Origin: a virus
DNA: 64,000 bases
IMG/VR virus record: IMGVR_UViG_3300021490_000002
Location: 1-64,000 of that record
Strand: one strand, 5' to 3'
Under the pieces are notes generated by a model. It did no database searches and was not told where the DNA came from. It saw only the letters and a list, made by a program, of their open reading frames with translations. Below, piece after piece: positions 1,432 through 52,444 of this stretch. Every line of letters starts with the position of its first letter. The stretch's first letter is position 1. A program made the position numbers and the translations under genes.

Positions 1432-1447
1432 TGCTATACCCATGCCA
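1432..1447 (-). promoter_or_regulatory. sigma54-like -24/-12 promoter (proximal)
   Basis: Minus strand TGGCAT-GGGTA-TAGCA(TAT), GG-N10-GC spacing, about 60 nt upstream of the first leftward ORF. Confidence 0.6.
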
Positions 1448-1638
1448 AATGTATGATATACACATAATTTATATAAAATTTTTATAAATATGCGGAATCA
1501 CTGGAAAAATTTTAAAATTGCCAAAATATAGACACCAATTTTTTTGATTTTACATTGACATTTATTTTTATATTGACAAAATTTGAAATAGCGATTTTAC
1601 AAAATTTCATAAATGTATAAATTTTTTGAAAAATATTG

Positions 1639-1698
1639 TTGACAAAAATTGTCAAAAAATTACAAAAATTGTCAGCGTAATTACAAAAAAATTGTCAA
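1639..1698. promoter_or_regulatory. Three repeats of ACAAAAA(AA)TTGTCA; candidate activator (UAS) sites
   Basis: TTGACAAAAATTGTCAA (palindromic, 1639-1655), TTACAAAAATTGTCA (1660-1674), TTACAAAAAAATTGTCAA (1681-1698). Confidence 0.45.
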
Positions 1699-1727
1699 TA
1701 TAAAATAGTCAAAAAAGCGACATTATA

Positions 1728-1824
1728 TTCAAAAACCATGCCAAAATTATATATGCAATGTGTGTGCCATGTGTATGATATATGCAAGAGATGTGCCAAT
1801 GGTGCATATGCAAGGGGTGTGCCA
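1728..1824 (-). promoter_or_regulatory. Tandem sigma54 -24/-12 promoter array
   Basis: TGGCAC-ACCCC-TTGCA (1809-1824), TGGCAC-ATCTC-TTGCA (1783-1798), TGGCAC-ACACA-TTGCA (1754-1769), degenerate TGGCAT-GGTTT-TTGAA (1728-1743). Confidence 0.8.
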
Positions 1825-1851: not shown

Positions 1852-1964
1852 TCTCTCACATATATAGTAAAATTTTACTATAAAGATTCTTATTAAATTT
1901 TTACCGTAAGAGTTTTTATAAGAGTTTTAGTAAGAATCCTTCTCTCACATATATAGTAAAATTT
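1852..1964. repeat. 24-bp direct repeat; first copy overlaps a 20-bp palindrome
   Basis: TCTCTCACATATATAGTAAAATTT at 1852-1875 and 1941-1964; TATAGTAAAATTTTACTATA at 1863-1882. Confidence 0.85.
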
Positions 1965-4774: not shown

Positions 4775-6319
4775 TTATAGTTCAGCATCAAATCTATATG
4801 GACTTGATAAGATTGTAGGTATGGTTCTCATTGGAATAATCCTGTCATTATAGGAATACGTTCCATCATCCGAATACCTGTAATACCTCAAGCACCTTAT
4901 CCTTTGCATATCTGGAGGGATGTATTCATATGCAGTTGCAACATCCCCTTCTTCTAGTTGAACATAATTTACCTTTATCCAATCTCCTACATCTTCCAAG
5001 CAATTCTCTCCGATTACTACCCTAAATGCCTCTTTCTCATAAAAGTGTATCTTATCAATATCAATATCTATTAAATCAAACGTAACTGAGAGCGTCTGAT
5101 ACTCTCCGTTTCCAGTGTACGCAAGCGTCCGAGTCCTATAAACCGTGTCATCTGAATATTTTAAAGAAACCTCAATATTTCTTGGCTTGTTTGAGGCTAG
5201 CTTAAACGAAATCGTGACTGGGCTCTTTTTAATTAAAATGTCCGAAACCATATTCCCTTCTATCCTCTGCTCTAAAGGAATGACTCTGTTGGATGTTCCC
5301 TTCTCCAGTAGAGTTATCTTACATGATTGTTTTTCAACTATTGACTTTCCTGTCTCTTGGACCAGAGATTGGATTTCAAATGGCTGGAGGACTTTGTTGA
5401 AAATTCTTACCTGGTCTATCTTATAGTTTTTGCTGGTCCACTGGTTTCCTATATAAACCCAACCGTCATTATGGTAGAGGTAATTGCTTTCAGTCGCCTC
5501 TACTTCATTATCAAAAGTTCCATCAATGTATAATTTTAGATGGGTTCGGTCTATGGTAACCGTTATATTGTGCCATTGTCTATAATTTAACAGTGTGTTG
5601 GCATATAAGAATTTTAACTTGTCTCTATACCAAGTATTGGCAATATAACGAAATCCGTTTTCAACTACTACTTGCCGATTGTCGGTGCTTACTAACCATA
5701 TACCAGGTTGCCTAGAATTATCCTGCGTAGTCTTCCACTGGTTGGTGTAACGATATGTTGTATCTTTTCCGTCAGGTGTTAGATGAAAGATATTTTGTCC
5801 AGCTCCTATATGTCCATACACATAAATCCATAAAGAGACTGTAAATTCGTTTGTCCCCCCTCTCTGAACCTTGTTTTCCGTTCTGAGCCAGCTACCCGTT
5901 CCTTTGTTGTAGTAATCTATACATCCGCCGAATTTTCCCATTCCCCAAACAATATTATTTTCTATGCAGTTATAGTTTCCCCCTAGGTCCTGTCCGTTTC
6001 CATCCAAAGGCCAGCAGGCAAGACAACTTCCATCTCCTAGAATATCCAGCACATCAACTGTAGCGCCCGCTTCTCCTGCAATCTCTATGTAGTTTAGACA
6101 TTCAATTTTGTTATCGTCAAAAGCTCCGCTCAGCCATCTATCAAAGGTATATTGTTTATTATTCTGAATAATAAATTTTTGTCCTCTTTGCATGACAGTA
6201 AAGTCACCATTAATTATCCTGTTCTTGTATCCAGAAATTGTAATTCTTTCTGTTCCAGGAATTATTGTTTCTAGGTCTCTTATTACTGTCTCTGTTATTG
6301 GGTCGTATATGTAACTCAT
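4775..6319 (-). CDS. Tail fibre/adhesin with LamG (concanavalin A-like) domain
   Basis: KNRIINGDF..QRG; FTVSLWI...WHNITVT...LYIDG...IDQVRIFNKVL; VQLEEGDVAT...RYY...DAEL. Confidence 0.8.
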   Translation of the reverse strand: MSYIYDPITETVIRDLETIIPGTERITISGYKNRIINGDFTVMQRGQKFIIQNNKQYTFDRWLSGAFDDNKIECLNYIEIAGEAGATVDVLDILGDGSCLACWPLDGNGQDLGGNYNCIENNIVWGMGKFGGCIDYYNKGTGSWLRTENKVQRGGTNEFTVSLWIYVYGHIGAGQNIFHLTPDGKDTTYRYTNQWKTTQDNSRQPGIWLVSTDNRQVVVENGFRYIANTWYRDKLKFLYANTLLNYRQWHNITVTIDRTHLKLYIDGTFDNEVEATESNYLYHNDGWVYIGNQWTSKNYKIDQVRIFNKVLQPFEIQSLVQETGKSIVEKQSCKITLLEKGTSNRVIPLEQRIEGNMVSDILIKKSPVTISFKLASNKPRNIEVSLKYSDDTVYRTRTLAYTGNGEYQTLSVTFDLIDIDIDKIHFYEKEAFRVVIGENCLEDVGDWIKVNYVQLEEGDVATAYEYIPPDMQRIRCLRYYRYSDDGTYSYNDRIIPMRTIPTILSSPYRFDAEL

Positions 6320-6337
6320 CTTAAGGAACTCCTTTGA

Positions 6338-7819
6338 TTAAAGTTCAGCATCATATATATAATATGACCCTACATGAGAAATTGTTGGGTCTGTTCTCAT
6401 AACGACAAGCTTTTTGAAGTGGTTGTAACTATTATCATCCATTATTCTGTAGTAGCGGATACATCTAAGATACTCCACATCAACAGGAATGTTTTCAAAG
6501 TATGTGGCTTCCTCTCCCTCCTCCATTTGTATGTTTTTTATTTTTATCCAATCTCCCGCATATTCAAGGTCTCCTTCTCCTATAACTAATCTAAAGGCCT
6601 CTCGCTCAGTTAATTTGTCTGGTTCGTTCGTAGTGTCTATGGAACTTAAATCAAACGTGGTTGACAATAACTGATAGTTCCCACTACCAGAGTAAGATAC
6701 TGTATTCTCTGCATAAGTAGATTCATCAGGATTTTTGATAGCTACTTTAAAATCTCTATTGACATTTGAGGCCAGCTCAAATGATACCGTAACTTTTTCT
6801 TTCTGGAGGATTAAGTCGTAGGCAAACGTTCCTTCTATCCTTTGCTCCAGAGGAATAACGTTATTAGAAGACCCCTTATTGACAAGCTTTACTCTATAAA
6901 GCAATCCATATTTTTCCCGTTCTGTCATCTCTTCTATACGAATGTGATTAATCTCTTCTGCCGTTAATATCTTTTTAAAGATTCTTACTTGGTCTATCTT
7001 GAAATTTTTGTAGTGCCATTTATTTCCTATATAAAAATAGCCATCATTGTGTTTGAAATTTTCTGATGCCGTAAATTCGTCTGTAAGCTCTCCATCAATA
7101 TATAGCTGGATGGTTTGAAGGCCTACGGTTACCACAATGTGATGCCATTCATTGAATGTTATCCCTCCAGTCGTCTTATATATTCCAATATCTCCGTGAG
7201 TAACCCCATCATTTTTTATAGTAAATTTTGTATTATCATCATGACAAAGCCATAGAGCTGGCTGGCGAGAATTTCCATTATTGTTATTGTTGTCTGGAGA
7301 TAGATGCCATATGCTAATGCTCTTTCCAAGACTTCCATATACATAAATCCAAGCGCTTATGCTTATCTCATTAGTCCCGCCTCTAGCGATTTTGTTGTTT
7401 GTGACCATGTAACTTGTCTCAGGAGCATTATTGTAATCAATACATTCATATAGCATTCCGTCTTCTGTAAAACTTACATCGTGCCCAGTGAGAGGGTAGT
7501 TCCCGCTGAGGTCCAAAAAATCTCTATCTAAATTCCAGCAGGCCAAGCAACTATTATCGTCCAAAATATCTAAGACATAACCAGGGATTATTGTTGAGCA
7601 TTGAATATCATTATCATCAAAGGCCCCGCTTAACCATCTGTCTGCAGTGTATTTTTTATCATTCTTTATTCTAAATAAACTTCCCCGTTGATAAAATCTA
7701 AAGCTTCCATTTATCAGTCTGTTTTTGAACTCAATAAAAGGTAGGTCGTCTAGGCTGGGACCCTCTGCTCGCTTGGTTTCATATAGTTTCCGTGTGAAAG
7801 GGTTATACTTATAAGCCAT
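6338..7819 (-). CDS. Tail fibre/adhesin with LamG domain (paralogue of 4775..6319)
   Basis: Same architecture; likely start MAYKYNPFT at 7819 after GAGGG. Confidence 0.8.
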   Translation of the reverse strand: MAYKYNPFTRKLYETKRAEGPSLDDLPFIEFKNRLINGSFRFYQRGSLFRIKNDKKYTADRWLSGAFDDNDIQCSTIIPGYVLDILDDNSCLACWNLDRDFLDLSGNYPLTGHDVSFTEDGMLYECIDYNNAPETSYMVTNNKIARGGTNEISISAWIYVYGSLGKSISIWHLSPDNNNNNGNSRQPALWLCHDDNTKFTIKNDGVTHGDIGIYKTTGGITFNEWHHIVVTVGLQTIQLYIDGELTDEFTASENFKHNDGYFYIGNKWHYKNFKIDQVRIFKKILTAEEINHIRIEEMTEREKYGLLYRVKLVNKGSSNNVIPLEQRIEGTFAYDLILQKEKVTVSFELASNVNRDFKVAIKNPDESTYAENTVSYSGSGNYQLLSTTFDLSSIDTTNEPDKLTEREAFRLVIGEGDLEYAGDWIKIKNIQMEEGEEATYFENIPVDVEYLRCIRYYRIMDDNSYNHFKKLVVMRTDPTISHVGSYYIYDAEL

Positions 7820-50448: not shown

Positions 50449-50862
50449 TTGGAGATGAGTGATAGTTACAACTTAGTTGACCCAACAGTTCCAGATATAT
50501 CTGCTGAGGATGTATCTTCCGAAAAGCCAGACGGTGTTTTAGATTTTTGCGTCCGTAACATTTCTTATGTAATCGGCAAGAATAGACAACTCATAGAAGA
50601 AGCTGAAGTTGGTTTTGATTCTTACATAGGTAAAAAACCTCATGTCGCTGCTCAATTTCAAAACAATATGTTAAAGGCCCTTCAACTAGAAGCTGATTTA
50701 GTAAAGCTACTTCTAACTATCCGAGAATATACAAGAAAAGAAACCAAAGAATCTGGAGAGGATAGTAAGTATGTAGATAATAGAAAAATTGTAATAAATT
50801 TAGATAGTAATTCCAGGAGGATGTTGGCTGATGTTATCAGCGGAAAATTCTCTCATAAGTAA
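50449..50862 (+). CDS. Putative terminase small subunit
   Basis: Helical, 137 aa, overlapping the large subunit gene. Confidence 0.45.
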   Translation: MEMSDSYNLVDPTVPDISAEDVSSEKPDGVLDFCVRNISYVIGKNRQLIEEAEVGFDSYIGKKPHVAAQFQNNMLKALQLEADLVKLLLTIREYTRKETKESGEDSKYVDNRKIVINLDSNSRRMLADVISGKFSHK

Positions 50863-52444
50863 AGATGGGAAAATACAGGAAGAAATTCCTCGTGAAATTC
50901 TAGCCGAAGTGTGTGCTTTCCATTACGATGCGTTTATGTATTCTGTTCTTCCAGACTTATTTTATACAAAGTCTTTTAGCCCATTCCATCGCTATCTACT
51001 AAAACTAATAGAAGATAATCAAAAAACGAGAAGGAGACGTGTTGTTGCAGGTCCCAGGGGATGGGGTAAATCCACTACTATTTCCGAAGGTGGTCCACTG
51101 TGGATTGTATGCAGAAATGATTATTTACCACCAAAGAAGCGTTATAAATATATTTTGCTAGTTTCTGACACGCAACCCCAAGCAGAAAAGAGATTGACAA
51201 CCATAAAGGAATATTTGGAGTCCGATATAATTGCCTATTTATTTCCACACGCCCACGGTCCTGGAAAAAAATGGAAAAGCTCAGAAATAATAACTAAAAA
51301 CGATATCTTGATTGGAACTGCTGGTTTGAAATCTTCCATACGTGGAACTAAATATAAAAATAGGAGGCCAGACCTTATTATAGTAGATGACCCTGACAAC
51401 TTAGAATCTGTTACCTCTCCATCACTATCAGCAACTGTTGAAGAAGTGTTTACAAGAGACCTTGTAAAAGCAGGAAGTGAAGATGCAGACATTTTAGTAG
51501 TCGGAACTGTCCTTGCTAAAACTGCCTTAGTATATAAATTACTTTATAGTGAGGACTACGCTGCCTGGGAAGGAAAGATTTTCAAAGCCCTTGTTTCTTT
51601 CCCAGAACGAATGGACTTATGGGATGAATTTGGAGAGATATTAAAAGACAGGGAGAATAAGTTTAGGAAAAAAGATGCTCTAAAATTTTATTTCGCACAT
51701 AAGGAGGAGATGCTCAAAGGAGCTAAGTCATTATGGGAGGAAGTCTATCCAGTCAGAAAGCTAATGGAAGAATACTACTTAGAAGGCAGAAGAGCCTTTA
51801 TGCTTGAAAAACAGAATGAGATAATTGAAGATGAGGAAGGAGTATTTAGACCAGAAAAATACAAGTATTACGAAGACGAAGAATTGGAAAAAATATATGC
51901 TTACCATCCTCTCATATATGTTTATGTTGACCCAACTGGAGGGAAACAGAAAAGCAGAGGAATTGGAAGAAGGAAAGGCGATTCCGACTTGTTTAGTTTA
52001 TGTGCTTTAGCGAAACTGGATAATAATTTGATTTATTTTATTGACAATAAGGTAGGTCAATTAAGACAAAGCGAGCAGTATTTTCTAATATACAAGTTTA
52101 TAAAAGAGTATGAGGAAAAAGGGTTAAGAATTTTTAAGTTGCTTGTAGAAGATAGAGGGGATAATTATTATGTCAACGGCCTAAAGGAATTTCTAACGAG
52201 ACGTGGTTTACGCAGGCCTGTCCCACAAGTTGTTACCCATAGAGTGAATAAGGTTGAGAGGATATCAATGTTAGAGCCATACCTTGACAATTGGACTCTT
52301 ATTCTTCCAGCTAACAGAAGGCGTTTTAAAGAATTTTACACTGAATTGGAAACATATCCCTATTGTGATTTTGATGATGTTCTGGATAGTTTGTCTGGAT
52401 GCTTCTTTGCAGCATATAAAACCTTTAGACTGAGGTATGCCTGA
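50831..52444 (+). CDS. terL: Terminase large subunit
   Basis: Walker A GPRGWGKST, Walker B LIIVDD, VVGT coupling motif, nuclease YVDP...DDVLDSL. Confidence 0.93.
   Translation: MLSAENSLISKDGKIQEEIPREILAEVCAFHYDAFMYSVLPDLFYTKSFSPFHRYLLKLIEDNQKTRRRRVVAGPRGWGKSTTISEGGPLWIVCRNDYLPPKKRYKYILLVSDTQPQAEKRLTTIKEYLESDIIAYLFPHAHGPGKKWKSSEIITKNDILIGTAGLKSSIRGTKYKNRRPDLIIVDDPDNLESVTSPSLSATVEEVFTRDLVKAGSEDADILVVGTVLAKTALVYKLLYSEDYAAWEGKIFKALVSFPERMDLWDEFGEILKDRENKFRKKDALKFYFAHKEEMLKGAKSLWEEVYPVRKLMEEYYLEGRRAFMLEKQNEIIEDEEGVFRPEKYKYYEDEELEKIYAYHPLIYVYVDPTGGKQKSRGIGRRKGDSDLFSLCALAKLDNNLIYFIDNKVGQLRQSEQYFLIYKFIKEYEEKGLRIFKLLVEDRGDNYYVNGLKEFLTRRGLRRPVPQVVTHRVNKVERISMLEPYLDNWTLILPANRRRFKEFYTELETYPYCDFDDVLDSLSGCFFAAYKTFRLRYA

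Follow-up and report, generated by a model that had tools for sequence, protein, structure and literature searches.

The locus described here raises the question of why a phage should carry three perfect matches to the sigma-54 (RpoN) promoter consensus side by side in gene-free DNA. Among bacterial sigma factors, sigma-54 alone keeps RNA polymerase waiting on the DNA for release by an ATPase; its holoenzyme forms a stable closed complex, and without the ATPase activator there is no start. Current descriptions of how phages transcribe their early genes deal mainly with sigma-70 promoters, phage polymerases and the appropriation of sigma factors.

The window, which is the whole stretch of 64,000 nucleotides that was analysed, covers positions 1 to 64,000 of an IMG/VR virus record (IMGVR_UViG_3300021490_000002). 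The record is linear, 81,254 bp long and about 80% complete, and was found in hydrothermal-vent metagenomes and in no RNA run. Identical or 98%-identical proteins occur on contigs of about 102 kb, indicating that about 20 kb are missing from the record. Contigs from four vent runs span the array unbroken and continue to the left of base 1. The phage is long-tailed, with a tape-measure protein of 3174 aa; terL is located at 50831-52444, and the replication module, which is on the minus strand, starts at 57.6 kb and extends as far as the record does. No tRNA genes were found in the record. We found no close phages in INPHARED, either by DNA or by terL, and the terL relatives in IMG/VR are at most 32% identical. 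A search with two flanking proteins likewise gave no relatives.

Results

Three perfect sites form a single cluster

The first-pass annotation of this DNA had listed three perfect sites and two variants on the minus strand, and all five were found again at their positions (Table 1). The three exact consensus sites A, B and C are packed into 71 bp, the start-to-start distances from A to D are 26, 29 and 26 bp, and site E lies 300 bp beyond sites A-D. ATAT after the TTGC position is common to all five sites. Scanning the whole 81,254-bp record for TGGCAC-N5-TTGC returned sites A, B and C only, while about 0.02-0.04 exact sites per genome are expected from base composition. Sites with up to two mismatches occur elsewhere in the window at chance level (11 found versus 10.9 expected), so that the signal consists of the single cluster A-C.

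The annotation had also stated that the spacers vary while the boxes are conserved. This holds for A-C, where all 14 box positions are identical and four of the five spacer positions differ. Moreover, the linkers between A and D differ in both length and sequence. Invariant boxes between such spacers and linkers argue against a recent plain tandem duplication. Among strain variants of the phage, no changes were seen in 1700-2070, where just one or two are expected. Sites E and C have the upstream flank TATATCATACA in common, site C overlaps a sigma-70-like TACACA-18-TATAAT match, and the RNA of the array (1880-1700) is without unusual folding (z = -1.0). A search of Rfam gave no matches.

Table 1. 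Positions of the sigma-54-type sites and of the features around them, in window coordinates
Feature	Position	Strand	Description
Site A	1809-1824	minus	Perfect TGGCAC-N5-TTGCA, TGGCACACCCCTTGCA; reads TGGCAC-ACCCC-TTGCATAT 5' to 3'; TAT after
Site B	1783-1798	minus	Perfect TGGCAC-N5-TTGCA, TGGCACATCTCTTGCA; reads TGGCAC-ATCTC-TTGCATAT 5' to 3'; TAT after
Site C	1754-1769	minus	Perfect TGGCAC-N5-TTGCA, TGGCACACACATTGCA; reads TGGCAC-ACACA-TTGCATAT 5' to 3'; TAT after
Site D	1728-1743	minus	TGGCAT-N5-TTGAA, TGGCATGGTTTTTGAA; reads TGGCAT-GGTTT-TTGAATAT 5' to 3'; GG kept, GA replaces -12 GC
Site E	1432-1447	minus	TGGCAT-N5-TAGCA, TGGCATGGGTATAGCA; TGGCAT-GGGTA-TAGCATAT; GG and GC both kept
Unit behind site E	1246-1421	minus	Predicted transcript of 176 nt, strongly folded
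SD GAGG	1385-1382	minus	In the unit behind site E
31-codon ORF	1373-1278	minus	Hydrophobic peptide
Terminator	1294-1254	minus	18-bp stem and T run; ends the site E unit
C-rich tract	1828-1840	minus	CCACCCGCCCCCG; 4 nt upstream of site A; single copy in genome
Identical 24-mers	1852-1875, 1941-1964		Flank a 16-bp inverted repeat; no further genome copy
AT-rich block	1448-1727		280 bp, GC 19%; between array and site E
Three 13-mers	1642, 1662, 1685		ACAAAAATTGTCA; inside AT-rich block; one within palindrome TTGACAAAAATTGTCAA
Next genes downstream	614-1213, 3-587	minus	199 aa (614-1213); 3-587 continues past the record's edge; many terminator-like hairpins
Last upstream gene	2283-2741	minus	Nuclease-like, weak PHROG 452 match

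The motif resembles verified sigma-54 sites

To our knowledge, sigma-54 is the only factor with this sequence specificity. At 15 of 16 bases, site A is identical to the sigma-54 site of E. coli prpB, which has been verified by ChIP (PMC4591121); this supports the identification of the motif as the RpoN consensus in the first-pass annotation. By the requirement of GG at -24 and GC at -12 with fixed spacing, A, B and C are exact. The two variants have to be separated: site E keeps both elements, while site D does not and, judged by its bases, is a decayed copy that does not look functional for sigma-54, since the -12 C is lost.

About 30 verified intergenic sites have been listed for Salmonella (PMC3844500), and by our own count only two of them read exactly TGGCAC-N5-TTGCA. 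As the exact match is rare among verified sites, three perfect ones in a row look selected for affinity. Further support comes from 76 strict sites drawn from 25 lineages, in which positions left unspecified in the search also follow the RpoN consensus: 62 of the 76 have Y in front of TGGCAC, and 54 have G behind it. The array sites have, in addition, C before TTGCA (54/76) and T after it (59/76). A C before TTGCA is outside the classical sigma-54 consensus and in this respect a point against sigma-54, although the E. coli prpB and glnK sites also have it (PMC4591121).

Predicted starts and the unit behind site E

We placed the predicted start 12 nt past the -12 C, which equals the published rule of 19 bp from the motif centre (PMC4591121). 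For site A, with its -12 C at 1810, the start falls at 1798, the first base of site B. The start of site B at 1772 is 3 nt short of site C, and that of site C at 1743 is the first base of site D. With the predicted starts on or just before the next box, neighbouring sites cannot both hold a DNA-opening polymerase, in agreement with the earlier suspicion that the sites are too close for simultaneous occupancy. The sites had further been described as aimed at the hairpin genes. Their orientation is as claimed, but the distance is not: the nearest ORF is at least 355 nt from A-C, behind the 280-bp AT-rich block, and no gene lies at promoter distance from them.

Of the five sites, E alone has what looks like ordinary promoter geometry. 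Its predicted start at about 1421 is just ahead of an SD sequence and 48 nt before the ATG at 1373, so that E shares with bacterial RpoN promoters the usual distance to SD and start codon. The unit behind E, which includes an internal hairpin of 12 bp, is much more strongly folded than its shuffled versions (z = -6.9) and encodes at most the 31-aa hydrophobic peptide. Instead of a gene it may be a small RNA; a small RNA of the sigma-54 type and a gene for a toxin-like peptide are both conceivable.

The control region and its neighbours

Sites A-E are located in an 860-bp gene-free gap (1419-2282), which separates late genes of the tail-fibre and lysis side from early leftward genes. Tail-fibre and lysis-side genes occupy 7849-2283 on the minus strand. 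This block is closed by the nuclease-like gene, after which a hairpin and a 318-nt stretch with more C than G, poor in G, follow. Read in the minus direction, next come the pair of 24-mers and their inverted repeat, the C tract, sites A-D, the AT-rich block, site E, the 31-codon ORF with its terminator, and the hairpin-rich genes.

The C tract beside site A is significant against random windows (p = 0.002), and a C- or G-rich tract beside the array is significant in about 12 of 25 lineages; it is thus frequent, not universal. The 24-mers, about 55-165 bp upstream of the predicted start of site A, are candidate enhancer or regulator sites, and the 13-mers are candidate phage-specific iterons or operators. 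In the 81-kb record, the 24-mers, the C tract and the 13-mers are all confined to the array locus.

No family matches were obtained in Pfam or PHROG for the products of 614-1213 and 3-587. An AlphaFold model of the 614-1213 product was of no use (pLDDT 43). Positions 1-1340 of the window hold, on both strands, eleven terminator-like hairpins versus 1.5 expected, with stems up to 20 bp, and several of them are inside these two ORFs. Transcripts starting at the array must read through them.

Arrays of the same kind recur in unrelated phages

We searched for two sites 6-16 bp apart. This tandem pattern was found in 58 IMG/VR stretches. At the nucleotide level these fall into 24 clusters that resemble neither one another nor this phage, and their GC ranges from 33 to 64%. 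Reversed and scrambled control patterns gave 0 and 0 matches in IMG/VR. In 596 Gb of prokaryote genomes the same pattern had five matches: three phage-like MAG contigs, one groES pair and one plain tandem repeat. One of the three MAG contigs, L061, has a gene for a phage portal protein. In metagenome contigs, 18 further stretches contained a related TTGCATAT-type pattern.

The groES pair is the only clearly cellular tandem of the prokaryote genome scan and consists of two identical tandem sites directly upstream of bacterial groES in a Tannerellaceae MAG (L063, 3639-3679).

We count as an array at least two consensus sites, 24-29 bp apart, on one strand of non-coding DNA, and the present sites form one. 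There is essentially one array locus per genome, and the spacing seen most often across the 25 lineages is 26 bp. Close relatives within one marine lineage have between 2 and 4 copies, ahead of a textbook sigma-70 promoter, and in several lineages such sigma-70 promoters follow the arrays and are able to serve early genes. Some other phages have inverted or convergent sites. By crude ORF calls, the array is co-oriented with the next ORF in 12 of 23 lineages (12 vs 11). In two marine lineages the arrays adjoin terminase genes.

Other repeats beside the arrays differ from phage to phage, while the TGGCAC boxes are constant. Three general companions of the arrays were considered and dropped: the co-orientation with the next ORF, DnaA boxes, seen in one lineage and in the cultured phage KIT04 only, and exact 9-mer repeats, seen in 4-7 of 25 lineages. 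A position at the physical genome end was dropped as well; in several complete records no more than 2 kb separate the array from a contig end, but the terminal repeats of 99-127 bp look like assembly overlap. A DNA and protein search for the host of a marine lineage was fruitless, the protein being a homing endonuclease.

In the largest IMG/VR cluster (L014, 6584-6753), twin DnaA boxes lie between the sigma-54 sites. That array is located in a divergent gap between a terminase-portal operon and small early genes; TerL and a 680-aa ORF of the operon were confirmed, and TerS is probable. A 352-kb jumbo phage (G013, 322853-322952 and 5660-5760) has a second array of four TAGCACGATTCTTGCA-type units with 28-bp spacing. 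Its run of TAGCAC variants breaks the GG core and is hard to reconcile with sigma-54 binding.

Relatives, hosts and possible binders

A 121,447-bp contig filed in a Victivallales MAG (G029:C341; loci L128-L134) has 16 proteins in common with this phage at 25-44% identity, and the order of their genes is partly conserved. On the strength of these proteins, it is a phage genome and a true distant relative. It carries six sigma-54-type sites in a 1.9-kb zone, which is non-coding apart from a few small genes on the opposite strand. One tandem pair follows a C tract, CCAGCCCGCCCCCCG, that closely resembles the tract beside site A; another pair is found beyond the small genes. The replication module of the relative is inverted with respect to its structural block. 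The Victivallales MAG encodes rpoN, although the binning of phage contigs is unreliable. In two other MAGs with phage-like array contigs, an actinomycete and a Saccharibacteria bin, rpoN was not detected; as these MAGs are incomplete and their binning is equally unreliable, this counts little against sigma-54.

A BLAST search with an array against cultured phages gave just a 19-nt match, which pointed to Vibrio parahaemolyticus phage KIT04. In its pre-early gap KIT04 has two perfect convergent sites (L095, 5990-6400; record 6082-6492). They enclose a pair of perfect DnaA boxes, TGTGGATAA, as well as two palindromes that resemble SOS boxes, and next come five 16-mers in tandem. The pre-early region of this T5-like phage thus contains a cluster of host-protein sites. 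In the T5 genome we found no sigma-54 sites.

The search for a phage enhancer-binding protein, which the first-pass annotation had proposed, was negative: the 81-kb record, which covers about 80% of the genome, gave no PF00158 match at E<=1. The other array-bearing records, 28 in number and with 10 at least 90% complete, likewise gave none that passed the cut-off. The sigma-54 DNA-binding domain is absent from all 29 array-bearing records. These phages have almost no proteins in common with this phage or with each other, which makes a common phage-encoded binder unlikely, and the same boxes in unrelated phages with so few common proteins favour a conserved host factor. The other loci were chosen by the motif itself, so that its recurrence shows that the motif matters, not which protein binds it. 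Taken together, sigma-54 is probably the binder of the array.

Discussion

We propose that the array offers docking sites to host sigma-54 RNA polymerase where the early region begins, E being a site of the conventional kind, and we consider this as about an even chance. Sites A-C would form a close-packed docking array of maximal affinity, at which the sigma-54 holoenzyme would park as a closed complex, awaiting its ATPase activator. At most one, or alternate sites, of A-C would hold polymerase at a time, and the array would retain the enzyme at this spot instead of acting as three additive promoters. Any transcription released would need a host activator and would run into the AT-rich, iteron-like block, while site E would drive a short, strongly folded unit ending at a strong terminator.

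Whether docking rather than strong transcription is the main role appears to us nearly balanced. The perfect boxes, the mutually exclusive tiling, the lack of phage activators in the records searched and the inverted or convergent sites elsewhere are in favour of docking. The close packing of A-C, with starts on or before the next box, makes holding the enzyme likelier than three promoters.

Tentatively, the arrays in many unrelated phages may serve as a trap or anchor for scarce host sigma-54 polymerase. As a trap, they would soak up the enzyme and silence sigma-54-dependent stress or defence programmes. As an anchor, a bulky host complex at the early boundary could be an insulator, a hold during DNA entry or an organiser of the origin. 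Either way, the phage would take over a host function without any protein of its own.

It is also conceivable, albeit doubtful, that the sites are working activator-dependent tandem promoters, where a host ATPase fires A, B, C and E and early leftward transcription is gated by a host signal. All five sites are co-oriented with the downstream genes, site E has the correct promoter-to-SD geometry and a terminator, and the two unique 24-mers are at an enhancer-like distance upstream and could be the enhancer. In a variant of this explanation, transcripts into the AT-rich block would switch on a replication origin or supply its primers, as happens at the primary origin of T7; the GC-19% block with its three 13-mers directly follows the array. 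A sigma-54-like promoter has, moreover, been reported for Pseudomonas phage YuA (PMC10914365). However, the starts of A and C coincide with the first base of the next site and that of B is 3 nt before it, which makes neighbours mutually exclusive, and the nearest ORF is far from A-C. The activator gene is absent from this record and from the 28 others, and some sites are inverted or convergent in other phages. Co-orientation with the next ORF in barely half of the lineages, on crude ORF calls, and sigma-70 promoters that can serve the early genes in several lineages also speak against it.

The boxes could instead be operators or iterons of a phage protein, for example the 614-1213 product, with an accidental likeness to RpoN sites. 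The array adjoins an AT-rich, repeat-bearing block, where sites of a regulator or initiator would be expected, and TGGCA and TTGCA are direct repeats one helical turn apart, which a multimeric protein could recognise. Conserved bases beyond the textbook consensus, ATAT here and C before TTGCA elsewhere, would also fit. We regard this as unlikely, as the motif, including the unselected Y and G, occurs in at least 24 lineages without a common candidate binder, the phage-specific repeats beside the arrays differ from phage to phage, and the control motifs yield no arrays. Within this phage the 13-mers are the better candidates for its own sites, and the 614-1213 product is without a family match.

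That a chance sigma-54-like site was duplicated in tandem without any function is very improbable: the 2 to 4 copies among close relatives of one marine lineage and the decay of site D would suit it, but the boxes are perfect despite diverged spacers and linkers, viral DNA is enriched in the pattern while control motifs have no matches, and the sites are kept in a relative at 25-44% protein identity.

Two further assignments were rejected. Replication-origin iterons would suit the adjacent AT-rich block, but unrelated phages have identical TGGCAC boxes and the 13-mers at 1642-1697 fit better. For a cos or pac terminase site, terL is far off and contigs bridge the region unbroken.

The docking arrangement proposed here has partial parallels. 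In T7, the early promoters A1-A3 are clustered, and the primary origin consists of paired promoters followed by an AT-rich stretch. The T7 promoters, which are read with sigma-70 or by the phage polymerase, fire unaided. This phage resembles T7 and T5 in having clustered sites for host proteins or polymerase in the first control region of the genome. For T5 an injection stop region is annotated in NC_005859; T5 differs in lacking a sigma-54 site, and a first-entry role of the region described here would be an analogy.

Bacterial RpoN promoters such as those of E. coli prpB, glnK and pspA have the same TGGCAC-N5-TTGCW, with GG and GC 10 bp apart (PMC4591121, PMC3844500). A cellular RpoN promoter stands alone, has an enhancer as its partner and in most cases deviates from the consensus. 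The virus instead has three perfect copies in a row, 26-29 bp apart; an activator gene is missing from their neighbourhood, and A-C have no gene as close as a promoter requires. A precedent for polymerase that sits silent, as proposed for A-C, is given by E. coli, where sigma-54 holoenzyme is bound at many sites without transcribing from them (Bonocora et al. 2015, PMC4591121). Those inactive or intragenic sites are scattered and single, and many are probably non-functional, in contrast to the dense intergenic array described here, which appears to be selected.

The first-pass annotation had called sigma-54-driven early transcription in phages rarely described. This is fair: our literature search yielded one studied single sigma-54-like phage promoter, that of YuA (Ceyssens et al. 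2008, cited in PMC10914365), and no descriptions of arrays. YuA is reported as a virulent phage partly dependent on host sigma-54 for transcription. It differs from the present phage, since its genome contains neither an array nor a perfect site, and its best matches carry two mismatches. A preprint describes a phage activator-like ATPase without the sigma-54 contact motif.

The closest counterparts are the arrays of other uncultured phages and KIT04, with at least two sites, about 26 bp spacing, one locus and gene-free control DNA. They are likewise accompanied by small early-type genes, often by a C- or G-rich tract, and by no phage activator in their records. Compared with them, the present array is small and strictly one-directional, without inverted partners, DnaA boxes or terminase neighbours. 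What is new about the element is its arrangement and its setting; the kind of site is known.

If many lineages have indeed converged on tiling the best sigma-54 site, the parking property of this polymerase would be exploited in a way outside current accounts. The arrays would then provide a sequence-only marker for early-control regions of phages and for rpoN-bearing hosts. KIT04 on V. parahaemolyticus is a cultured pair that permits a direct test. The window adds an example from a thermophile habitat and an internal contrast of three tiled sites with one promoter-like site.

A 271-nt contig of a vent run (X11), which aligned to 1739-1774, holds a different sigma-54-type site, CTGGCATGTAGGTTGCT, and an inverted partner. 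Other elements of the same community hence have sigma-54-type sites.
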